DNA from: Escherichia phage ESCO13
Sequence record: NC_047770.1
Reading direction: 5' to 3' (one strand)
Length of the DNA stretch: 64,000 bases
Shown: piece after piece, positions 20,035 to 59,664 of the stretch
Layout: every line of letters starts with the position of its first letter
How positions within the stretch are numbered: the first letter of the stretch is position 1
Position numbers and translations under genes: made by a program
Notes under the pieces: generated by a model
What the model saw: only the letters and a program-made list of their open reading frames with translations
The model's database searches: none
Told to the model about the DNA's origin: nothing

Positions 20035-20850
20035 TTATTTGTTTAAGTGGTCTTCGACCATTTTAATGAAACCTTCATTGCTGAAGGCTGTTGCAGCTTT
20101 TTCTCGGTAAACAAAAACTCCACGATCTTCATAGAGAAGTGTTTCTTCGTAATTAACTCCAGGGTTAACTACAACCATTTTTGTACCCATACTAAGTGCA
20201 GGAAATAATTCCCAATTAAAATTGATAACTTGGTTTGAACATCCTACTACTACAACCAAATCTTGCATGGTCAAAGTATCGAACAAGTGAGCCATATCTA
20301 CATACAAAGGTGCAGCCTCACCAAAAAATACAACATTAGGCTTCACCCAGTTATAATCATCTATGTTTATACTATTGTAACCAATATCTACCAGTGTTTT
20401 GTAATCTCCAGGATGCATACGGTAAACTACTTCAGGAAGATATCCGTGTACGTGAATAACAGAATCTCTGTCTACACCTGCTCGCTCTAGTAGATCATCA
20501 ACGTTTGTTGTCAAGTTTACTATTTGGTTAGGATATTCCTTAAACCACTTTGCTATTTGAATATGTGCAGCATTAGGTTGTACATCTTTAAGCTCAACAC
20601 GTCTTTTGTTATAAAATTCGTGTGTTTTGGCATACAAATCCATACCGTTCTCATCTACACCACCGACCACTGGAAGACCTGGAGATGTTCTAACACGATA
20701 ACCTGCTTGGAAAGCTCCAATATCGCAGACCTCTTCTAAATCATATTCTTCCCATAAAGCACGACCACTATCTGTGTCTGTTCTAAATGTTCGAATCCCA
20801 CTGTCTGCACTTAAACCTGCACCGCTTACAAAAATCACTCGTCTTGGCAT
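20035..20850 (-). CDS. Sir2-like (sirtuin-family) NAD-dependent protein
   Basis: VIFVSGAGLSADSGIRTFR (GAGxS..G..FR); TTNVDDL; HG; SD gaggagg. Confidence 0.7.
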   Translation of the reverse strand: MPRRVIFVSGAGLSADSGIRTFRTDTDSGRALWEEYDLEEVCDIGAFQAGYRVRTSPGLPVVGGVDENGMDLYAKTHEFYNKRRVELKDVQPNAAHIQIAKWFKEYPNQIVNLTTNVDDLLERAGVDRDSVIHVHGYLPEVVYRMHPGDYKTLVDIGYNSINIDDYNWVKPNVVFFGEAAPLYVDMAHLFDTLTMQDLVVVVGCSNQVINFNWELFPALSMGTKMVVVNPGVNYEETLLYEDRGVFVYREKAATAFSNEGFIKMVEDHLNK

Positions 20851-42647: not shown

Positions 42648-43256
42648 TTAGTTTTTAAAATTGTTCAAAGTGTTAAAAACATCCAAACATGTTAGCCACT
42701 GATCTTCTAAACCTGTGATCACAACATTTGGTTTTTTCTTTAGTTCTTCTAGATGGTTATCTTTATAAGGCGTATTAAAATATATTTTAACCACTTCATC
42801 TGGAAAATATAGTAGGTTATCAGCCCTGTCATCTATTGCTATATCACAAGGCAATAAGTATTTTTCTTTCGTAGCAAAAAAGCCGTTGCCAGATCCTTTG
42901 CTAAAATCAATCGTATCTAATGTTCTTAAAACATGCTTATGTTTAGAACTTAAGTGACCACCTTTTGTCACACTCGCGATCAAAAGATTGCTACCTTTCC
43001 TTGAAACATACTTTAAGAAATCTGGCATACCTGGAACAAAACCCATTGTATCGTAGAGATGAGGATTATCCAGAAATCCGTAAGGATCTATGTTGAACTC
43101 TTCCCTGAAACCAGGAAAATAGTTGGTAAGATCATAATCTGCATTTTTTGTGAATGTGTCGATTTTAACACCAAGGCCACTAATCTTATTCAACCATTCT
43201 AACCAAGCAACATCTAACGGAGCCACAACTAAATCCCAATCACATACTATCTGCAT
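42648..43256 (-). CDS. HAD-like phosphatase, possible 5'(3')-deoxyribonucleotidase
   Basis: N-terminal VCDWDLVV (DxD-type motif I); IAIDDRADN; SD gaggagg. Confidence 0.4.
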   Translation of the reverse strand: MQIVCDWDLVVAPLDVAWLEWLNKISGLGVKIDTFTKNADYDLTNYFPGFREEFNIDPYGFLDNPHLYDTMGFVPGMPDFLKYVSRKGSNLLIASVTKGGHLSSKHKHVLRTLDTIDFSKGSGNGFFATKEKYLLPCDIAIDDRADNLLYFPDEVVKIYFNTPYKDNHLEELKKKPNVVITGLEDQWLTCLDVFNTLNNFKN

Positions 43257-48047: not shown

Positions 48048-48773
48048 TTACTTATTAATAATACCTGCAATATTAGGTTTGACAAAGGTCGATGGTTTCA
48101 TGATCTTACCTTTATCATCAAAGAACACATACACTTTCTGTTTTTCATTATAAACAGCATGAACACCAGTGTATGCCCCTTCTGGACGATTGGCATTTCG
48201 TTCTTCAATTGCAGCGCATTCTTGTGCAATGGCTGAATCGATATCCGAAGTTTTCCAAGTTTTCAGCAACTGTTGTTTAGTTGGATACTTGGAATCATTA
48301 CTTTTCAATACCTCTTTAATAACTTTCTTTTCTGGATATTTTGAACGGATTAGAGTGTCACGAGACATACGCATAATACCAGCAGCCATTAGTGCCATTT
48401 GAACTGGCTCTGTAAATGTTTGTTCCAAAGCATCAAAATCAGTATACACAGTTGGAGTAAAAACATCGCCTACAGCATAGTCCAAGAAATTCATCGTATG
48501 TTCTTCACCAAAGAACATGTAGGTCAGATAACTGGATACTACAAAAATATCCGCTGCTGCATCCAAGAGTTCTACATGATCGTTTACTTTCGCGGCTGTT
48601 TCATACTCTTTAAGCTCTTCACGAACGAATCCGATTTGGGACATAAATAGCTCTTGAGTGAATTCAGGTTGTTCACCACCTCGTGCTTTAGCATTCCAAT
48701 CAATCACGTGCTTCGCTGCATTTTTGAAAAATTCAGTATCGAACTTAATATCTTTAAAAAAATTCTCGATCAT
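48048..48773 (-). CDS. MazG-like nucleotide pyrophosphohydrolase (putative)
   Basis: REELKEYE ... ELLDAAADIFVV resembles the MazG EExxE...D core; SD aaggag. Confidence 0.4.
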   Translation of the reverse strand: MIENFFKDIKFDTEFFKNAAKHVIDWNAKARGGEQPEFTQELFMSQIGFVREELKEYETAAKVNDHVELLDAAADIFVVSSYLTYMFFGEEHTMNFLDYAVGDVFTPTVYTDFDALEQTFTEPVQMALMAAGIMRMSRDTLIRSKYPEKKVIKEVLKSNDSKYPTKQQLLKTWKTSDIDSAIAQECAAIEERNANRPEGAYTGVHAVYNEKQKVYVFFDDKGKIMKPSTFVKPNIAGIINK

Positions 48774-48782
48774 TATAACTCC

Positions 48783-48965
48783 TTATTTAAAATAGCTTTC
48801 TAGAAAGTTGCTAATATTTACTACAGTCTCACCCATGTAAATTCCTGCGAAACCGAAAACAAGCATACGTGGAATATTGAAATACCATTTATCCGCTGGA
48901 AAAGATGCCAGAATTACAATAGCAATTGCTATCAGCATCATAAGAATTGTTGCTAAAATTATCAT
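48783..48965 (-). CDS. small membrane protein
   Basis: Start moved to ATG 48965 after SD ggaggc; hydrophobic. Confidence 0.4.
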   Translation of the reverse strand: MIILATILMMLIAIAIVILASFPADKWYFNIPRMLVFGFAGIYMGETVVNISNFLESYFK

Positions 48966-49156
48966 AAAAATGCCTCCAGGTATTTTGAACAATGATAAGC
49001 TAAGAAACAAGAAACTACCGCATACCCAACTCCAGACATACATGAATCAATCACAACACATACGGTTCTTTTCTTTGAATTCTTAGGAAAGTTTTCCGAA
49101 GCATTCATACAATAAAAAGAAAGTACACTGAAAACGATTAAAATGGCTAAGAACAT
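48962..49156 (-). CDS. small membrane protein
   Basis: SD aaggagg; hydrophobic N-terminus. Confidence 0.45.
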   Translation of the reverse strand: MFLAILIVFSVLSFYCMNASENFPKNSKKRTVCVVIDSCMSGVGYAVVSCFLAYHCSKYLEAFL

Positions 49157-49165
49157 TTTTCCTCC

Positions 49166-50281
49166 TTACTCTGCTGGTTCCCAAGTGCCTGGGATCATTT
49201 CTCGAATACGAACACCAACAGGTTTTGTTGGAATACCTTCATCTGAAAATTCTTCATACTCTATTTCAACGAACTGATTAATCAAGGTAGAAGCATTCTC
49301 TGCTTTACGATAATTGATAGTCTCATGAGCATCTTTACGCATTAAGAATTCGACTACTTTACCATTTTCCATCTCACCTGTCAACACTCCATCGCCATTT
49401 TTATCGCTTTTTGAATTTGTTACTTTAACTTCAAGGGTGTGGCGAGGCTTACGTTTAATAACGTCATAAGAACGTTTATCAAATTCGTAAACTCCGTGAG
49501 CATTACGATATACTACACCTTCAGCTTTCTCAAGTAAAGCTTTTTCATAGAAAGCGTCAAACTGCTCTTGGTTTTCAATATACTCTGTATGAACTACACA
49601 AATAAGCTCGTCAAGACCATAATCTTCAACTACTGCCTTAAGAGCAGCAAGAGCATCAACACGTTTTTCAAACGGTAGACCTGGAACTGGAATATCGTAT
49701 ACGTAATAATTCAGCAAAGGTGTATTTGCATTATGCTTCTTCCAAGCACTGTTAATTTGTTGCAGACTAAGGACACCTAACCCAGCAAACACTTCACCAT
49801 CAAGAGGATGACCAACAACTTCACTAATAAAGTTTGGAATACCTTTCCAATGAGGTGGCAGGTTATACACTTCCCCAGCTTTTGATAAACACTCCCCTTT
49901 CATGTTAATCATAGAACGTAACCCGTTCAGTTTGTATTGTGCATAACCAGGGAACACAACCCTTTCAGGATAATCTTTATAATCCTGGCATTTCATTGGT
50001 GTGGAAGGAACATGGTTTTCAGCTTCTTCTTTTGTTTTATAATAGCCATTCTTTAACTGTTTTGTCCATTTGGCAAAAGCTTCAAGTTCAGCTTGTTCTT
50101 CCGGTGTTGTTTCATTGGAACGACCAATGTTTTTTGCTTCTGCTGTATAAGATTTTTCTGTGATCTTTCCACCTACTCTTCCATGAGCTACAGTAACAAC
50201 TGCACCATCTGTATATACTGTCCACTGTTTAAGTTTTCCTTTTGAATCTTTACCATACAGCGTTTGATTTGTTTGTTGCAT
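49166..50281 (-). CDS. ATP-dependent DNA ligase
   Basis: KLNGLR (motif I), LDGEVF (III), EGVVYR (IV), VIKRK (V); start uncertain between 50281 and 50293. Confidence 0.7.
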   Translation of the reverse strand: MQQTNQTLYGKDSKGKLKQWTVYTDGAVVTVAHGRVGGKITEKSYTAEAKNIGRSNETTPEEQAELEAFAKWTKQLKNGYYKTKEEAENHVPSTPMKCQDYKDYPERVVFPGYAQYKLNGLRSMINMKGECLSKAGEVYNLPPHWKGIPNFISEVVGHPLDGEVFAGLGVLSLQQINSAWKKHNANTPLLNYYVYDIPVPGLPFEKRVDALAALKAVVEDYGLDELICVVHTEYIENQEQFDAFYEKALLEKAEGVVYRNAHGVYEFDKRSYDVIKRKPRHTLEVKVTNSKSDKNGDGVLTGEMENGKVVEFLMRKDAHETINYRKAENASTLINQFVEIEYEEFSDEGIPTKPVGVRIREMIPGTWEPAE

Positions 50282-50502
50282 TAGTCCTCCCATTTAAAAA
50301 CTGAAATTTTCAATCTGTTACACACTTCATCCAAATCTGCGTCGAGTAACGTTGTAGATGTTGCCAACATATAATCAATGCTTGTGAAACCTTGCCCTTT
50401 GGCATAGTCAAGCATATCTTCATACATATCTTCAAGATCACCGTCATCAAAAGTAGCTAGAAAATCCTCGTCTCCGCTACGAACATAAAATGCAGTACTC
50501 AT
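50281..50502 (-). CDS. hypothetical acidic protein
   Basis: ATGA overlap with upstream gene. Confidence 0.4.
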   Translation of the reverse strand: MSTAFYVRSGDEDFLATFDDGDLEDMYEDMLDYAKGQGFTSIDYMLATSTTLLDADLDEVCNRLKISVFKWED

Positions 50503-50690
50503 TCTTCTTCATCCCAAGATTCAAAAGCACAACAATCATCGGTTTCTATAATACCAACACGTCCGCAGGTATTGCAAGTGATTTTATCCCCGTAGAATAA
50601 ATAATTTTTATCACCCTCTGTGTTTACAGTTATGTCATTACTACCACAAGGGCAAGTCAGCCAACCAACAACAACGATATCTTTTTTCAT
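50499..50690 (-). CDS. small zinc-ribbon protein
   Basis: CPCGS ... CNTCGR; SD aaggaggg. Confidence 0.4.
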   Translation of the reverse strand: MKKDIVVVGWLTCPCGSNDITVNTEGDKNYLFYGDKITCNTCGRVGIIETDDCCAFESWDEEE

Positions 50691-50699
50691 AATCCCTCC

Positions 50700-51026
50700 T
50701 TAAGCGTTCAGTTCGTTGTTGAGTTCGTAAATCTCTTCTTGAAGAGCATCAATCTCTTCCTCCAAACGGGAGATCTCTTCTTTTAGATATACCATTTCGG
50801 ATTCTTTCTCTTCTAATTCATTTTCAAATTTTACTTTATTAGCCTCATTTTCATAATGCAGTTCAGCGTAATCATCACGCATTTGTTCAATAAGATGAAT
50901 CAGAGACAAGATATAATTGTCTCCCGTTTCATCACGCCACTCTTCACCGTGACGGAGAACGGTAATTCGTCCAGTATCTTCATCTAAAATTGTCTCATAT
51001 TTACGATCATCTGTATAAATCTGCAT
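50700..51026 (-). CDS. hypothetical coiled-coil protein
   Basis: SD aaggagaaa; heptad-rich acidic C-terminus. Confidence 0.45.
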   Translation of the reverse strand: MQIYTDDRKYETILDEDTGRITVLRHGEEWRDETGDNYILSLIHLIEQMRDDYAELHYENEANKVKFENELEEKESEMVYLKEEISRLEEEIDALQEEIYELNNELNA

Positions 51027-51035
51027 TATTTCTCC

Positions 51036-51440
51036 TTATTGAAGTTTAAGTGAACCACGAAGACGTTTCTCTTGCTGATCACGGATATATTGTGGAACCT
51101 CGTGAATTGAATCATTACCGTGCCTATTTTCAACAATTAAAGAGATAACTTGATAACCAAACTCTTCAGCAAGAGCTAGATAAGGTTTAAGTTCTTTCTC
51201 TGTGGTTGAAGTATTAGAAACAATAATCTTGTTAAGATTAGATGCCATAGCATCACGAACAATACCCTGACACCATGCGTGTGCTTTACCTACATTTTCT
51301 GGCTTCCAATCGTAAACACCACTCTCTGTGTAATGATATTGATCTGCCTCACAGATAGGCCAATAACCTTCAGAAATAATTTCTGCTACTGTAGATTTAC
51401 CAGCACCTGAAACGCCACGTAAAATGATAAGTTGTTTCAT
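51036..51440 (-). CDS. Pnk-like P-loop 5'-OH polynucleotide kinase
   Basis: LIILRGVSGAGKSTVAE (Walker A) and IIVSNTSTTEKELKPY resemble the T4 Pnk kinase domain (from memory); SD ggagga. Confidence 0.55.
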   Translation of the reverse strand: MKQLIILRGVSGAGKSTVAEIISEGYWPICEADQYHYTESGVYDWKPENVGKAHAWCQGIVRDAMASNLNKIIVSNTSTTEKELKPYLALAEEFGYQVISLIVENRHGNDSIHEVPQYIRDQQEKRLRGSLKLQ

Positions 51441-52373
51441 TTATCCTCCAAAAAAGTTTTCGATTTTTTCACGTCGCTCTTGCTGATTTAAAGCAGCCCA
51501 TTGAGTCTTCGTAAAATTATTTCGAATCCATTCTAACAAAGCGTAATATTCTTCGTCAACCATTTGTTTGGCATTTTTTGGATTATCCCAAATCAGATCC
51601 CACTTTTTATCTCCACCGCGCATAAGAAACTTCTTAGTAAGATAGTGTGGTGATTTAATTTTTAAAAGTAAGTTGAACGGATAGTTTGTTTCACGAACTA
51701 CAAACCCTTCGTGTTTACAATGTTTAGACATTTCAACAACATCTGAAAACTTAACCATTGGATGAACTTCAGGACGCTTAAATTTGGTGACAGAAGCAAT
51801 TCCATCAAGAGCACCTTCAGGTAACATAAAACTTGTCCCATCAGGATTTTGAATTCTGGCACCAATTAAGTATGCACCTGGTTCTTCTTCGACAATATGC
51901 GGATCAGAAGGATCACAGATTTCAAAAAGGAAAGTTGCTTTTGCACTCTCTGTCCATTTGATGAAATGTTCTATGTCATCACACTCTGAAACAATACGAT
52001 TCTTTGCAATACTTGCAAAATCTGATTCAAGGCTTCCTGTTGTCGATACAATAAGTTGACCTTTATATACACCTACAGAGGCCATAAAACCATTTACTTT
52101 ACGAACCACATCTACAAGTTCATCCAATGGTAGATCTGTGCCATTCTCAAAACGATTAAAAATCTTAGTGAAAGGCCAAATAACAACATTGTCATCAGCA
52201 TCAACAACGATTCCGCGACATTCTAGAAGACGAGAATCAATGCTCCATAAGTTATCCCAGAAAACTTTGTTCTTATACTTAAGAACAGATAGACCAGAAT
52301 ACTCTCCTTCTTTATATGTTTTCTTATGAACTAAACCTTTTTCAACCAAATCGTCGCAATTAAATTTATTCAC
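51441..52373 (-). CDS. RNA ligase-like nucleotidyltransferase (Rnl2-like)
   Basis: KVNG (motif I), HEGFVVRE (IV), LLLKIKSP (V); SD aaggagag. Confidence 0.6.
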   Translation of the reverse strand: MNKFNCDDLVEKGLVHKKTYKEGEYSGLSVLKYKNKVFWDNLWSIDSRLLECRGIVVDADDNVVIWPFTKIFNRFENGTDLPLDELVDVVRKVNGFMASVGVYKGQLIVSTTGSLESDFASIAKNRIVSECDDIEHFIKWTESAKATFLFEICDPSDPHIVEEEPGAYLIGARIQNPDGTSFMLPEGALDGIASVTKFKRPEVHPMVKFSDVVEMSKHCKHEGFVVRETNYPFNLLLKIKSPHYLTKKFLMRGGDKKWDLIWDNPKNAKQMVDEEYYALLEWIRNNFTKTQWAALNQQERREKIENFFGG

Positions 52374-52374
52374 A

Positions 52375-52926
52375 TTACTCTCCTTTGATTATTTTGTGAT
52401 GGTCTACAGTCACGATATCTCGTTTACTCATCATAGAAATTATCTCATCAAAATGCAAGATTTTTCCGTGTGCATCCCAACCCACATCTAACATTTTACC
52501 ATAAGCTTCATCAGGGAAAGATCCGTGGGAATGCCCGTGTAGCATGATTGATCCACGACCTTGTTTATTCCAGGAGGCCATAGGGTAATGACTTAAGACG
52601 AAGAACAGCTTCTGATATTTCACTTCGTCATAATACACCACTTCACCATACTCTGCAAGCACTTCTCGGTGTTTGCTGTAGTCATGGTTCCCAACACAGT
52701 AGGTGATATCTCCTTGGAGACGAGAAGCAATTTTACGGGTATCTTCTTCAGTTCCGAAACAGAAGTCGCCCAAATGCCACATCTTAACACCAGGAGTAGT
52801 AGCACATTTGTTCCATGCTTCGATCAAGGCTTCTGTCATGTGGTCCATATCTTCCCACGGACGATATTCAGGAGCAAACTCTCGAATACGTTTATGCATA
52901 AAATGCAAATCGCTTGTAATAAACAT
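52375..52926 (-). CDS. calcineurin-like metallophosphoesterase (end-healing phosphatase candidate)
   Basis: SDLHF (DxH), LGDF (GD), GNHD, HGHSH; SD gaggga. Confidence 0.65.
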   Translation of the reverse strand: MFITSDLHFMHKRIREFAPEYRPWEDMDHMTEALIEAWNKCATTPGVKMWHLGDFCFGTEEDTRKIASRLQGDITYCVGNHDYSKHREVLAEYGEVVYYDEVKYQKLFFVLSHYPMASWNKQGRGSIMLHGHSHGSFPDEAYGKMLDVGWDAHGKILHFDEIISMMSKRDIVTVDHHKIIKGE

Positions 52927-53282
52927 TAGTATAATCCCTCGCTAAATAATTCATGGTCGTGACCATTACGCTCATGGTCGATCTGGTCAGCATTTTCCGC
53001 GATGATGTAAGCATCCGCACGACTCCACCAATTGTAATACTGATCGATAAAGCCTTGATTATCTGGTGTGCACAAAGTTTTGTTGATTACACCTGCTTCT
53101 TTCAACACGTTTAACTGTGCATATAGTACAGGATTTGCATGTCGAACACAAGGAATAATTAACTCTTCACCATTATTCAAAATATACTTATTTGCAGCAC
53201 AGACGATAACACGTTGCGCATAATGACCCTCACCCATCCAGGTAAGAGGTTGGTAACAAATATTGTTTTCAATACCACTCAT
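52926..53282 (-). CDS. hypothetical protein
   Basis: SD gaggagg upstream. Confidence 0.45.
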   Translation of the reverse strand: MSGIENNICYQPLTWMGEGHYAQRVIVCAANKYILNNGEELIIPCVRHANPVLYAQLNVLKEAGVINKTLCTPDNQGFIDQYYNWWSRADAYIIAENADQIDHERNGHDHELFSEGLY

Positions 53283-53288
53283 TGTTTC

Positions 53289-53432
53289 CTAATCCTCCTC
53301 TCTTAAGTTATCCTCGAAAAAACTAGTGTCTGGAAGTAAAAGATCATTACTTGTGTCGGGCCAATCCTCTTCTTCTCGGTAGATAAAGTAACCTTCGTCC
53401 TCTTCTTGTTCCGACCAAACCGAATGATGCAT
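53289..53432 (-). CDS. small acidic protein (47 aa, not in track)
   Basis: ATG after SD aaggaga; fills 150-nt gap. Confidence 0.3.
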   Translation of the reverse strand: MHHSVWSEQEEDEGYFIYREEEDWPDTSNDLLLPDTSFFEDNLREED

Positions 53433-53441
53433 GTTCTCTCC

Positions 53442-53786
53442 TTAGTAGTGCACACGAATCATTTTAATACCATAACGCAGCATAGATTCTTTTGCAAGCA
53501 TGAATTTATCCCCAGCGGCGGGATTAGAAGTATGCACGAAAATGGTGGGTGAACCAAAGCAAGGTTTACCAAACGCCAGAAGTTCTTCCAGGTACAGGAA
53601 AACATCATACCCATCTTGGTCTGACTCCATACCTAAATCATTGTCAAAAGACCACTCGGTTACTCTTCGATACAGTTTAGCAGGATCGTTGAGAAAGGCC
53701 ATAGCTTCTTGTGACGTTTTAAACCAAATTGCATCCTCCTGTCCATAGTCGGCTGGGTTCCGCATATCATCTATCCAAACTTTCAT
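53442..53786 (-). CDS. hypothetical protein
   Basis: SD aaggagg upstream. Confidence 0.45.
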   Translation of the reverse strand: MKVWIDDMRNPADYGQEDAIWFKTSQEAMAFLNDPAKLYRRVTEWSFDNDLGMESDQDGYDVFLYLEELLAFGKPCFGSPTIFVHTSNPAAGDKFMLAKESMLRYGIKMIRVHY

Positions 53787-53796
53787 ATAACCTCCT

Positions 53797-54267
53797 TTAA
53801 GCTGGCATGATTAAAAAAGAACTTTCCACTTCAAAATGCCAATCATCAACAAGCCCTGATTCCCAATCCTTCTCTTCATGGAAAGAGCAAATCCAACGGT
53901 ACATACCTGGCGGTGTATTCTCAACATCTTCTGGCAACCCATAATCCAAAGCTGTCTTACCGTTCTCTGTAAAACTAGGATGGAGATTAGGAGCCTTCAG
54001 TACAGAAACCATACCTCCAACATCCACAGCTACGATCCACTCTGTCATGTATGGGCTGTCATATTGAGGCTCATCAGAACCTACCTCAACAGCCTCTGTG
54101 CGTAAGATGATAATAGCCTGCTCTGTGATTGGGGCTTTGACAATATAACCGTGGTCCTCAAAAAGATCGATAACCTCGAACTCATCGCCGTTTTCGACAC
54201 CATAACTCTTATTCAAAGAGATAAACTTCGGGTTATCATCGTAAGCTTTAGTTACTTTAATTCTCAT
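53797..54267 (-). CDS. hypothetical protein
   Basis: SD gaaggagg upstream. Confidence 0.45.
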   Translation of the reverse strand: MRIKVTKAYDDNPKFISLNKSYGVENGDEFEVIDLFEDHGYIVKAPITEQAIIILRTEAVEVGSDEPQYDSPYMTEWIVAVDVGGMVSVLKAPNLHPSFTENGKTALDYGLPEDVENTPPGMYRWICSFHEEKDWESGLVDDWHFEVESSFLIMPA

Positions 54268-54467
54268 TTTTCCTCCTTCACTTTAACCTCAAATTCTACA
54301 GGATTACCCTCAATGTAAAAACACTGATACTCTGCCTTATCATCATCACGAGGCCAAGTTACCAAGGAGTTATAGCAATCTTCTGGTGCTTTGAAGATGG
54401 TTTTAGTCTCCACAGTAACATTCCCATTAAGTGTTGCCAATACCACCCACCCAGCTACAGGGATCAT
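54264..54467 (-). CDS. hypothetical protein
   Basis: Start moved to ATG 54467 after SD ggagg. Confidence 0.35.
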   Translation of the reverse strand: MIPVAGWVVLATLNGNVTVETKTIFKAPEDCYNSLVTWPRDDDKAEYQCFYIEGNPVEFEVKVKEEK

Positions 54468-57536: not shown

Positions 57537-57608
57537 GGCCCTGTAGCTCAATGGGAGAGCTGTCGGCTCATAACCGATAGGTAGCTGGATCGAAACCAGC
57601 CAGGGCCA
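57537..57608 (+). tRNA. tRNA-Met or Ile2 (anticodon CAT)
   Basis: Hand-folded cloverleaf; acceptor ggccctg/cagggcc; loop cuCAUaa; CCA encoded; resembles E. coli tRNA-Ile2 (from memory). Confidence 0.7.
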
Positions 57609-57613
57609 CCAAA

Positions 57614-57685
57614 GTCTTTATGGTGTAATGGATAGCACAGGAGTCTTCTAAACTCTTAGTCAAGGTTCGATTCCTTGTAAAGACA
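57614..57685 (+). tRNA. tRNA-Arg (anticodon TCT)
   Basis: Acceptor gtcttta/taaagac; loop cuUCUaa; T-arm caagg-ttcgatt-ccttg; CCA encoded. Confidence 0.7.
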
Positions 57686-57884
57686 CCAGAACATTTTAAC
57701 ATGAATTAGCTCAAGTGATTTGAACCCACTACTGATCATGGTGGCAGAGAATGAGGCAAGTATGTCAGACATTATAAACAAAGGCCACGGTTATATTAGA
57801 AGACATAAATGCTCGAAGAGCACCGTTCGTGGAGAACGGGGGTTGGTGGAGTCACCATTCATGGTAAAATGTTTTAAAAAACTA

Positions 57885-57914
57885 TTGACAACAAACATTA
57901 TTTTATGTTAGATT
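57885..57914 (+). promoter_or_regulatory. sigma70-like promoter inside the tRNA cluster
   Basis: TTGACA-18-TAGATT. Confidence 0.4.
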
Positions 57915-57922
57915 ATAAGTAT

Positions 57923-58010
57923 GGAAGGGCAAATCGATGTGGCGACGAAAACGGTCTTGAAAACCGCCGAGCTTGAAAGAGCCTTGGGAGTTCGACTCTC
58001 CCTCCTTCCG
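57923..58010 (+). tRNA. tRNA-Ser (anticodon TGA)
   Basis: Long variable arm; loop cuUGAaa; T-arm gggag-ttcgact-ctccc; CCA encoded. Confidence 0.6.
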
Positions 58011-58018
58011 CCAGATTA

Positions 58019-58101
58019 GGTAGATTGGTGAAATGGTAGCCACGACAGTTTGCTAAACTGTAGTCGGAAACGGCGTGTAGGTTCGAGTCCTACATCTACC
58101 G
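58019..58101 (+). tRNA. tRNA-Ser (anticodon GCT)
   Basis: Acceptor ggtagat/atctacc; loop uuGCUaa; long variable arm; CCA encoded. Confidence 0.6.
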
Positions 58102-58234
58102 CCAAGTTCTTTTTAATGTAGCTTACTTTAGCAGAGTAAATCTTCGGCAAGTGGCGGTAACCACTTTACCGATACCTCATAGTTAGTGGTGTGAACACTG
58201 GCTATTTTAAAAAGAATTTAAATATTAGTATTTA

Positions 58235-58319
58235 GGTGAGTTAATTCCGTAGGGGTAGCGGGGCAGACTGTAAATCTGTTATCATTGCGATTCGGGTGGT
58301 TCGACTCCATCACTCACCA
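58235..58319 (+). tRNA. tRNA-Tyr (anticodon GTA)
   Basis: Acceptor ggtgagt/actcacc; loop cuGUAaa; long variable arm; CCA encoded. Confidence 0.65.
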
Positions 58320-58328
58320 CCAAATTAA

Positions 58329-58411
58329 GATGAGTTGGCTGAATGGTTTAAGCGGCGGACTGTTAATCCGTGTTCGAAAGAACAATATAGGTTCGAATCC
58401 TATACTCATCG
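58329..58411 (+). tRNA. tRNA-Asn (anticodon GTT) with unusually long variable arm
   Basis: Anticodon arm gcgga-cuGUUaa-tccgt matches E. coli tRNA-Asn (from memory); extra gttc-gaaa-gaac hairpin in variable region; CCA encoded. Confidence 0.55.
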
Positions 58412-58505
58412 CCAGAATTATGGACTTGTAGAGTTAAGGTAAACCCCCCAGTCGCCAATAGGCTTCTGGAATTGCAGGTATCGAATCCTGCCGAGTCCCA
58501 GCATT

Positions 58506-58577
58506 GCTCCTATAGTATAATGGCTATTACAACGGTTTTGTAATCCGTGGATCTCTGTTCGATTCAGTGTGGGAGCA
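58506..58577 (+). tRNA. tRNA-Thr (anticodon TGT)
   Basis: Acceptor gctccta/tgggagc; loop uuUGUaa; one mismatch each in anticodon and T stems; CCA encoded. Confidence 0.5.
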
Positions 58578-58854
58578 CCAACACAACATTAAGAGCACTG
58601 TGATTGATCGTCGTATCCTGTGCACAAGGTCTGCTCGAAAGACAGTGTTCTTAGTATTGTGTTGATCACAAAAAGAGTCACCCGAAACTTGACCGGAGTA
58701 GGGTTGGATGGGGCAAAATGAGAAGCGGCTCTCCCATCGACAGCAACGAAGAATAATATTTGACTTTGGTTTTGTATTATTTTAAGTTAGCTTACCGAAC
58801 GTAGGGCTAGTCACCCAACGGGATACTCGTCACTGTCCCAATCAATAAAAGTCT

Positions 58855-58883
58855 TGACAACAAATAGTAAAATGTAGTATAGT
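58855..58883 (+). promoter_or_regulatory. sigma70-like promoter upstream of tRNA-Gly
   Basis: TTGACA-17-TATAGT. Confidence 0.5.
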
Positions 58884-58894
58884 AAATATATATG

Positions 58895-58965
58895 GCGTTC
58901 TTGGTGTAGCGGTAGCATTCCGTCCTTCCAAGTCGGCGGCACGAGTTCGATCCTCGTAGAACGCT
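58895..58965 (+). tRNA. tRNA-Gly (anticodon TCC)
   Basis: Acceptor gcgttct/agaacgc; loop cuUCCaa; T-arm acgag-ttcgatc-ctcgt; CCA encoded. Confidence 0.65.
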
Positions 58966-59066
58966 CCAAATTATTTAATAAAGGGTTGCCAGAAAACTTT
59001 CTCTTTTACTCATGGTTTTCTCCTTCTCTCACACTTCTTCTGGTTGCCCTTCATTAAATGATTTAT

Positions 59067-59139
59067 TGGTTTGTAGTGTAGTCCGGTAGCACACGACACT
59101 TTGACTGTCGTAGGTTTGGTTCAAATCCAGACAGACCAG
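59067..59139 (+). tRNA. tRNA-Gln (anticodon TTG)
   Basis: U1-A72 and discriminator G as in E. coli tRNA-Gln (from memory); loop cuUUGac; CCA encoded. Confidence 0.65.
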
Positions 59140-59235
59140 CCATATAACAAAGGTGAGTCACTACCTTAAGTGTGAAGTTAAAAACGAGGAGCCGCCGAAC
59201 ACTTTCTTTTGCGGTGTACCTTTAGAATGTTATCA

Positions 59236-59309
59236 CGGGACGTAGCACAGCTTGGTAGTGCGCTCGCTTTGGGAGCGAGAGGTCGAGTGTTCGAATCACT
59301 CCGTCCCGA
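59236..59309 (+). tRNA. tRNA-Pro (anticodon TGG)
   Basis: C1-G72 start as in bacterial tRNA-Pro; loop uuUGGga; T-arm gagtg-ttcgaat-cactc; CCA encoded. Confidence 0.7.
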
Positions 59310-59318
59310 CCAATTAAA

Positions 59319-59389
59319 TGTTTCGTAGTTCAATGGTAGAACCCACGACTGATAATCGTGAGACACAAGTTCGATTCTTGTCGAAACAA
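59319..59389 (+). tRNA. tRNA-Ile (anticodon GAT)
   Basis: Anticodon arm cacga-cuGAUaa-tcgtg; T-arm acaag-ttcgatt-cttgt; CCA encoded. Confidence 0.65.
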
Positions 59390-59470
59390 CCAGTTTCCCG
59401 TTAGACTTACAGGATAAGAGTTCCACAGCTTATTGTGATGCTGGTTCGAATCCAGCACGGGATACATAAT

Positions 59471-59546
59471 AGCGGGATAGAGGAGTCTGGTCGTCCTCGC
59501 CAGTTTCATATGCTGGAGATCATCGGTTCAAATCCGATTCCCGCCT
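59471..59546 (+). tRNA. tRNA-Met (anticodon CAT), A1-C72 mismatch
   Basis: D-stem gagg/cctc; anticodon arm ccagt-uuCAUau-gctgg; T-arm atcgg-ttcaaat-ccgat; CCA encoded. Confidence 0.6.
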
Positions 59547-59664
59547 CCAAATATCGCTTGCCAGCGGTATCTTTGAAGACCTTGCCTGGTTCCTTCTAAG
59601 ATGGAGGGGTGCGACTCCTTAACGCACAATTATAATAAAGCATTTCAACTTAACAGTATTTACT

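Follow-up and report, generated by a model that had tools for sequence, protein, structure and literature searches.

The only phage tRNA-repair system demonstrated so far is that of T4 (PMC7824862), in which Pnkp (PseT) and the RNA ligase Rnl1 (gp63) counter the anticodon nuclease PrrC. A related set of candidate loci is known from comparative genomics. Iyer, Burroughs and Aravind (Viruses 2022) described a sirtuin-linked RNA-repair neighborhood, termed type 2, with Escherichia phage V5 and Proteus phage Mydo as its prototypes (PMC9503650, section 3.7.3). It brings together a tRNA ligase of the T4 type, a cREC (cyclic-phosphate-processing receiver-like) domain protein, a small nucleotide/polynucleotide kinase, MazG, and a calcineurin-like phosphoesterase, and it was proposed to clean up RNA ends bearing 2',3'-cyclic phosphates, with the sirtuin removing the 2'-phosphate at the expense of NAD+ (PMC9503650). 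The heal-and-seal idea for such a neighborhood is already in print as a computational prediction. Here, we describe three adjacent genes in a 64,000-nucleotide stretch (the window) of Escherichia phage ESCO13 (NC_047770.1), a phAPEC8-like myovirus of the genus Phapecoctavirus, subfamily Stephanstirmvirinae. We consider it likely that this trio is the core of an RNA end-healing and end-sealing module, which would resemble T4 Pnkp plus Rnl1 in its logic but would be made up of separate proteins. The three genes are:

52375..52926, minus strand: metallophosphoesterase of the COG4186/Aq_1665 clade, 183 amino acids (aa); PF00149, phrog_547
51441..52373, minus strand: Rnl1-family ATP-dependent RNA ligase with a short C-terminal region, 310 aa, GTG start; PF09511, phrog_562
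51036..51440, minus strand: standalone polynucleotide 5'-kinase-like P-loop protein, 134 aa; PF13671, phrog_2071

An earlier interpretation from the DNA letters and their open reading frames (ORFs), called the sequence-only reading below, had placed these three genes side by side. We found their limits to be exact, and all of the motifs it had quoted are present and invariant in the family alignments. The three proteins exceed the Pfam gathering thresholds for PF00149, PF09511, and PF13671, far beyond chance, so that by family assignment the three predicted heal-and-seal activities are encoded next to each other. Each gene is a separate ORF with its own start and stop codons. The phosphoesterase and ligase genes are separated by 1 nucleotide (nt), the ligase and kinase genes by 0 nt; the genes are packed for co-expression. 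Over bases 50500-54300, the sequence is the same as that of Escherichia phage vB_EcoM-Ro121c4YLVW (100% identity), and dozens of further records reach at least 97%. The genes have already been labeled singly in the records of phage Schickermooser, as 'putative polynucleotide kinase', 'putative RNA ligase', and 'putative phosphoesterase'.

The ligase carries the motifs K92-V-N-G95, E222-G-F-V-V-R227, and K238-I-K240. It matches PF09511 (RNA_lig_T4_1) at 5.9e-15 (56.2 bits; gathering cut-off 28.3) and phrog_562 of the PHROGs collection at 2.9e-70. Single-sequence searches of the PDB were too weak for both the ligase and the kinase (for the latter, uninformative beyond the P-loop), and family profiles were used instead. 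With a profile of eight divergent phage homologues of the ligase, the best match was T4 Rnl1 (2C5U) at 4.8e-15, covering residues 49-284 and thus the whole nucleotidyltransferase domain. In the second tier stood 8UCE, which bears the deposited name 'ATP dependent DNA ligase', and Pab1020, a ligase from archaea; both were weaker than T4 Rnl1 by at least about nine orders of magnitude. Nine residues are invariant in the eight homologues (R53, K70, K92, G95, E151, E222, G223, K238, and K240), and in the profile alignment they pair with T4 R54, K75, K99, G102, E159, E227, G228, K240, and K242. F72 pairs with T4 F77 and is absent from the invariant list. Together these positions cover nucleotidyltransferase motifs I, III, IV, and V and the upstream residues specific to Rnl1 (T4 R54, K75, and F77). 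For this comparison we used the set of essential T4 Rnl1 residues that was reportedly defined by mutagenesis in the Shuman laboratory. Judged by its sequence, the ligase is a member of the Rnl1 family, of the T4 Rnl1 type. The sequence-only reading had called it Rnl2-like, which has to be corrected: there was no match to PF09414 at E <= 0.01, and T4 Rnl2 was absent from the PDB profile matches at E <= 1. The 310-aa protein likewise had no match to the DNA-ligase family PF01068. About 65 residues follow motif V, and the T4 alignment stops near T4 residue 284. The family alignment shows a conserved DEE(F/Y) segment in this C-terminal region.

The kinase has a P-loop (G9-VSGAGKS-T17) and matches PF13671 at 3.5e-10 (40.8 bits; cut-off 27), phrog_2071 at 4e-56, and the polynucleotide kinase (Pnk) family phrog_505 at 1e-7. 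With a profile of 24 homologues, the top five distinct PDB matches were headed by Capnocytophaga Pnkp1 (4XRP, 1e-6) and the kinase domain of Clostridium thermocellum Pnkp (CthPnk, 1e-5); a kinase from Mucorales (Rhizopus azygosporus, 9D8A) came next, followed by T4 Pnk (~8e-5). The AlphaFold2 model has a predicted local distance difference test score (pLDDT) of 92.4. Its top Foldseek matches were CthPnk and T4 Pnk structures with template modeling (TM) scores of 0.72-0.79 (CthPnk 0.79, T4 Pnk 0.76-0.78), while nucleotide (adenylate) kinases scored ~0.5. A nucleotide rather than polynucleotide kinase is disfavored by this ranking of profile and fold matches. In Pnk enzymes, the catalytic general base is an aspartate that follows strand beta-2 (D35 in T4, D38 in the Clostridium protein), and R38 of T4 binds the substrate phosphate. 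The invariant D33 of the phage kinase pairs with the catalytic aspartate of CthPnk and Pnkp1; three positions further on, a nearly invariant histidine (H36) stands where T4 Pnk and CthPnk have the substrate-binding arginine. R106 in an ENRHG motif may serve as the lid arginine. Close homologues are all standalone proteins of ~131-144 aa. By profile and predicted structure, this protein is a Pnk-clade enzyme with putative 5'-OH kinase activity. Its family also shows invariant or nearly invariant histidines and cysteines (H36, H54, C57, H107, and H113), an unusual set that is not known from T4 Pnk or CthPnk. The motif pattern (AD-YH, AH-WC, NTSTTE-E-KPY, and ENRHG) presumably resembles that of the eukaryotic N4BP2/N4BP2L P-loop kinases.

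The third protein shows the phosphoesterase motifs D6-L-H8, G53-D54, G79-N80-H81-D82, and H132-S-H134, and matches PF00149 (24.9 bits; cut-off 21.5) and phrog_547 (6.5e-56). Eleven residues (D6, H8, G53, D54, G79, N80, H81, H113, G131, H132, and H134) are invariant in 26 homologues, and all six metallophosphoesterase motifs (DxH, GD, GNH(D/E), H, GH, and GHxH) are complete. Judged by these motifs, the protein has a complete dinuclear metallophosphoesterase site. Close homologues are all standalone (~165-216 aa). In the PDB, the family profile had a single significant match, Aq_1665 (1XM7) at 2.9e-22. Neither lambda phosphatase nor the CthPnkp phosphatase domain matched the profile at E <= 1, and no Mre11 or SbcD chain was among the matches at the same threshold. 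Both lambda phosphatase and CthPnkp are metallophosphoesterases and are established 2',3'-cyclic phosphodiesterase/3'-phosphatases (PMC2190708). By analogy, the phage protein would be a candidate 3' end-healing enzyme, acting as 2',3'-cyclic phosphodiesterase and/or 3'-phosphatase. The sequence-only reading was right in taking the 3' healing candidate for a metallophosphoesterase and not a HAD phosphatase. The only HAD-type phosphatase among the ORFs scanned is an NT5C-like 5'-nucleotidase of the HAD superfamily (42648-43256, minus strand; PF06941, 9.4e-6), which adjoins ThyX 8 kb downstream of the cassette; its context points to a gene of nucleotide metabolism and probably not to an RNA 3'-phosphatase.

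The strongest evidence for a shared function of the three proteins comes from their linkage, because it survives repeated rearrangement. We mapped eight phage lineages that diverge from one another by homology (Phapecoctavirus, Mydovirus, Vequintavirus, Pakpunavirus, two Demerecviridae genera, Saclayvirus, and Otagovirus), and the ligase, kinase, and phosphoesterase genes lie within 3.5 kb of each other in all eight, in varying orders and orientations. When IMG/VR was searched with the ligase alignment, 80 metagenomic viral loci with 39-88% identity were returned, and 62 of these contain all three genes. Where at least 4 kb of sequence was available on both sides, the kinase was present in 47 of 56 loci and the phosphoesterase in 50 of 56. 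Both partners occur in 26 of 29 ligase clusters (55% identity), and the trio is found in five distinct gene arrangements. The median gap from the ligase gene is 1 nt to the kinase and 224 nt to the phosphoesterase, compared to 1.8 kb to a DNA ligase and 3.3 kb to nicotinamide phosphoribosyltransferase (NAMPT).

All three proteins retain intact catalytic residues, and a repair pathway can be drawn up by analogy with T4. An RNA would be cut by a metal-independent ribonuclease of the host, for which an anticodon nuclease is the most plausible candidate, and would be left with 2',3'-cyclic phosphate and 5'-OH ends. The COG4186-type metallophosphoesterase would turn the cyclic or 3'-phosphate end into a 3'-OH, the 134-aa Pnk-like kinase would phosphorylate the 5'-OH, and the ligase would seal the break via a lysyl-AMP intermediate on K92. 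We infer by this analogy that the substrate would be RNA rather than DNA, that tRNA would be the target, and that the phosphoesterase would have the specific activity given here. A role of the module in tRNA repair and counter-defense is plausible.

The surroundings of the trio contain further genes that bear on this interpretation:

53442..53786, minus strand: cREC domain protein, accessory, 114 aa; PF20274
52926..53282, minus strand: PF26092 / phrog_839 protein between cREC and phosphoesterase, 118 aa; membership in the module uncertain
48048..48773, minus strand: MazG-like nucleotide pyrophosphohydrolase, accessory, 241 aa; PF01503, phrog_671
20035..20850, minus strand: Sir2 homologue, 271 aa; PF02146
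49166-50293: ATP-dependent DNA ligase, 0.7 kb from the kinase gene
57537-59549: cluster of 10 tRNA genes, 4 kb upstream of the trio

The DNA ligase and the tRNA cluster had been recognized in the sequence-only reading, which overlooked the cREC, MazG, and Sir2 genes as well as the published neighborhood. The cREC protein matches PF20274 at 3.9e-17, and its invariant residues (DD / FDNDLG / HTSNP / K) correspond to a receiver-type acidic site. In three lineages cREC neighbors the ligase gene; in Mydo and in the rV5-like phage FFH2, it directly adjoins this gene and the Sir2 gene comes next. Iyer et al. introduced the cREC domain in a 2021 paper on jumbo phages, with the prediction that it is a cyclic phosphodiesterase (PMC7824862); it is stated to be experimentally uncharacterized, its function being a prediction (PMC7824862, PMC9503650). 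According to the proposal of Iyer et al., cREC would open the cyclic phosphate to a 2'-phosphate, which Sir2 would then remove with NAD+, as Tpt1 does. In the rV5/phAPEC8 supergroup, cREC and Sir2 may provide an alternative route via the 2'-phosphate. The Sir2 homologue of the window (phmmer 1.8e-78 against the FFH2 Sir2; PF02146, 3.2e-22) is orthologous to the cassette-adjoining sirtuin of Mydo and FFH2. Here, it is located 30 kb downstream on the same strand, and Pfam scans between 41 and 55 kb detected no Sir2 gene. It lies near the end of a long minus-strand gene block next to genes without recognizable domains, and the GC skew changes sign at ~20 kb. The MazG-like protein (PF01503, 2.7e-6; phrog_671, 7.5e-29) is encoded at a syntenic position in Mydo and FFH2. 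All three accessory genes are restricted to the enterobacterial rV5/phAPEC8 supergroup, with cREC at 8, Sir2 at 9, and MazG at 11 of the 80 loci. Base 52926 is shared by the PF26092 ORF and the start codon of the phosphoesterase gene. The structural model of the PF26092 protein is confident and has no solved structural relative. A 118-aa ORF that follows the phosphoesterase gene in Mydo is not homologous to it.

Genes of NAD+ salvage are also found near the trio in other phages. NAMPT is present in 42 of the 80 IMG/VR loci and at loci L003 and L005-L009 (~1-6 kb away), and ribose-phosphate pyrophosphokinase in 33 of the 80; The phi92-like loci L010 and L011, which are closely related, have NAD+-salvage genes as well. 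In the 64-kb window, neither of the two genes was found anywhere. In some phages, a further RNA ligase gene lies a few kb from the Rnl1-type trio, as in Acinetobacter phage Acibel004 (L007, 12591-13730) and Vibrio phage Achelous (L006, 16351-16903). The one in Acibel004, annotated as RnlB/Rnl2, has a Macro-domain ('Appr-1-p processing') gene in its vicinity.

Several observations weigh against an RNA repair module. Kinases of the Pnk type accept both DNA and RNA, and an ATP-dependent DNA ligase gene lies within ~2-5 kb in 40 of the 80 loci. The C-terminal helical domain of T4 Rnl1 (~120 aa) confers tRNA specificity; the phage ligase appears to lack a full-length domain of this type (~65 versus ~120 aa after motif V). 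In addition, the position of T4 K119 in motif Ia is occupied by an invariant threonine (T112) in the ligase family. The phosphoesterase clade COG4186/Aq_1665 is uncharacterized and without a known substrate; a literature search for functional work on it found none, and neither did one for experimental work on any member of the trio. tRNA genes are located near the cassette in only three of the eight lineages. Finally, one ligase clade has neither partner in the available flanks (13 loci, many of them on short contigs or near a contig end).

The module could instead serve the phage's own RNAs, by maturation of tRNAs or transcripts, quality control, or collateral repair after phage-induced RNA degradation. 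We consider this unlikely. The tRNA cluster 4 kb upstream, and those close by in Mydo and FFH2, would fit such a function, but the other five of the eight lineages have no tRNA genes within 8 kb, and tRNA adjacency is therefore not a general feature of the module. The genes flanking the cassette are replication and nucleotide-metabolism genes, with no recognizable anti-defense genes among them. Moreover, infection by Pseudomonas phage PAK_P3 leads to massive host RNA turnover and to induction of the host RNA-repair operon RtcAB (PMC4933390). On the other hand, no introns in phage tRNAs and no self-cleaving elements were identified, and the sole experimentally established role of a phage Pnk plus Rnl1 pair is to counter PrrC in T4 (PMC7824862).

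It seems very doubtful to us that the cassette is an accessory of DNA-nick repair or replication, in which the kinase and the phosphoesterase would heal 3'-phosphate and 5'-OH ends of DNA for the neighboring ATP-dependent DNA ligase, with the Rnl1-like protein doing something else. The DNA ligase gene is only 0.7 kb from the kinase gene, the surrounding genes belong to DNA metabolism, and the structures of T4 Pnk and CthPnk include DNA complexes (1RRC, 4MDE). But across the IMG/VR loci both healing enzymes are linked most tightly to the Rnl1-family ligase, at the median distances given above, and not to the DNA ligase. The phosphoesterase shows a weak match to the ligase-associated DNA-damage nuclease PdeM (TIGR04123; E = 0.0034), which at 16.8 bits is far under the cut-off of 150, and the family profile reached the Pseudomonas DNA-repair MPE nuclease 6NVO only at E = 0.66. 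The sequence-only reading had named a DNA-ligase family for the sealing enzyme and Mre11/SbcD for the phosphoesterase as outcomes that would speak against it; the ligase came out closest to T4 Rnl1, and the phosphoesterase not as Mre11/SbcD. Furthermore, the literature places cREC and Sir2 in settings of RNA repair or ADP-ribose (PMC7824862, PMC9503650).

Most improbable is that the three genes are unrelated members of an early-gene block and that the Rnl1-like protein is mainly a tail-fiber attachment catalyst like T4 gp63: phrog_562 and GenBank names do read 'RNA ligase and tail fiber protein attachment catalyst', and scans for promoters and terminators gave no sign of a dedicated operon (32 versus 29.1 and 8 versus 5.8 hits, which is shuffle background and uninformative), but the catalytic residues of the nucleotidyltransferase are all invariant across the family, which argues for selection on ligase activity, and a linkage kept through five rearrangements and in 26 of 29 clusters is hard to explain without a shared function.

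Within the tRNA cluster, we noticed an unusual tRNA-Asn(GUU) gene (58329-58414, plus strand, 86 nt). It has a class II architecture, and its long variable arm contains a stem of 4 bp; the discriminator is G73, the CCA is encoded, and the body resembles that of the phage's tRNA-Ser(GCU) at 58019-58104. Phapecoctavirus keeps this long-arm tRNA-Asn at 95% identity or more, some T4-like phages have it at 77-88%, and T5-like Salmonella phages at 83% with the arm included; it is always annotated as plain tRNA-Asn. Seryl-tRNA synthetase recognizes the long arm and not the anticodon, and therefore the charging identity of this tRNA is in question. A role in evading an anticodon nuclease is possible. 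We found no literature on long-arm tRNA-Asn in phages.

The number of known defenses that cut tRNAs keeps increasing (PrrC, RloC, PARIS, retron-associated PtuAB, OLD, and Cas13), and hundreds of sequenced phages have the trio, among them phages of Escherichia, Klebsiella, Pseudomonas, Vibrio, Acinetobacter, and Aeromonas; some belong to genera used in therapy. A working repair kit would predict which defenses these phages withstand, would assign a function to an uncharacterized metallophosphoesterase clade and to the cREC domain, and would offer compact new RNA-end-modifying enzymes. A more far-reaching interpretation, which we regard as decidedly unlikely, would see the near-universal trio of COG4186 metallophosphoesterase, standalone Pnk, and short Rnl1 as a third type of phage RNA heal-and-seal system that is widespread and has a biochemistry of its own, giving COG4186/Aq_1665 its first function. 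In rV5/phAPEC8 phages this system would be extended by an NAD+-dependent cREC/Sir2 branch analogous to eukaryotic Trl1/Tpt1, and the PF26092 protein would be a new RNA-end-processing enzyme. For the window itself, the value lies mainly in correct annotation, and a first test by experiment would find a well-defined target in the trio.

Compared to described proteins and systems, the phosphoesterase shares the N-terminal DxH, GD, and GNHD motifs with Aquifex aeolicus Aq_1665 (1XM7, COG4186 'predicted phosphoesterase'). Since the latter is an uncharacterized structural-genomics target, no function can be transferred from it. With the bacterial Pnkp systems (Clostridium thermocellum Pnkp/Hen1 and Capnocytophaga Pnkp1-Rnl-Hen1), the window has in common a Pnk-type kinase, a 3' healing candidate of the metallophosphoesterase superfamily, and an ATP-dependent RNA ligase, and the best PDB matches of its kinase are Pnkp1 and CthPnk. 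In contrast, it has three polypeptides instead of one, its ligase is Rnl1-type and not of the Pnkp type, and the ORFs of the 41-55 kb region that were scanned with Pfam matched no methyltransferase family, and thus no Hen1. Because the phosphoesterase, which belongs to the COG4186/Aq_1665 clade and shows no significant match to the lambda-phosphatase-like Pnkp domain, represents a different clade, the 'split Pnkp' of the sequence-only reading is an analogy and not a homology. The likeness stands at the functional level only, and the kinase is no less similar to T4 Pnk than to CthPnk.

The logic of healing and sealing is the same as in T4. The window encodes an Rnl1-family ligase with counterparts of the essential T4 residues and a predicted Pnk-clade 5'-kinase with P-loop and catalytic aspartate. 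However, its 3' healing candidate is a separate metallophosphoesterase, whereas T4 uses a HAD (DxDxT) domain fused to the kinase; its ligase has 310 aa, a short C-terminal region, and a threonine for T4 K119; and its function is a predicted one, whereas that of the T4 system is demonstrated. The closest match is the type 2 neighborhood of V5 and Mydo. Ligase, cREC, kinase, MazG, and phosphoesterase are all located in 48048-53786 on one strand, and the proteins are clearly homologous to those of Mydo and FFH2 (for the ligase, 1e-114 and 2e-89). In the window, however, the sirtuin is present but unlinked, 30 kb away, and the PF26092 gene lies between cREC and phosphoesterase. The published description calls the phosphoesterase 'occasional' and the kinase a 'nucleotide kinase' (PMC9503650), whereas in our survey kinase and phosphoesterase form a near-universal core, to which sirtuin, cREC, and MazG are lineage-specific additions. 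In addition, our profile and predicted structure place the kinase in the polynucleotide-kinase clade, the phosphoesterase is, by its sequence, of the COG4186 type, and Phapecoctavirus has unlinked its sirtuin from the cassette.

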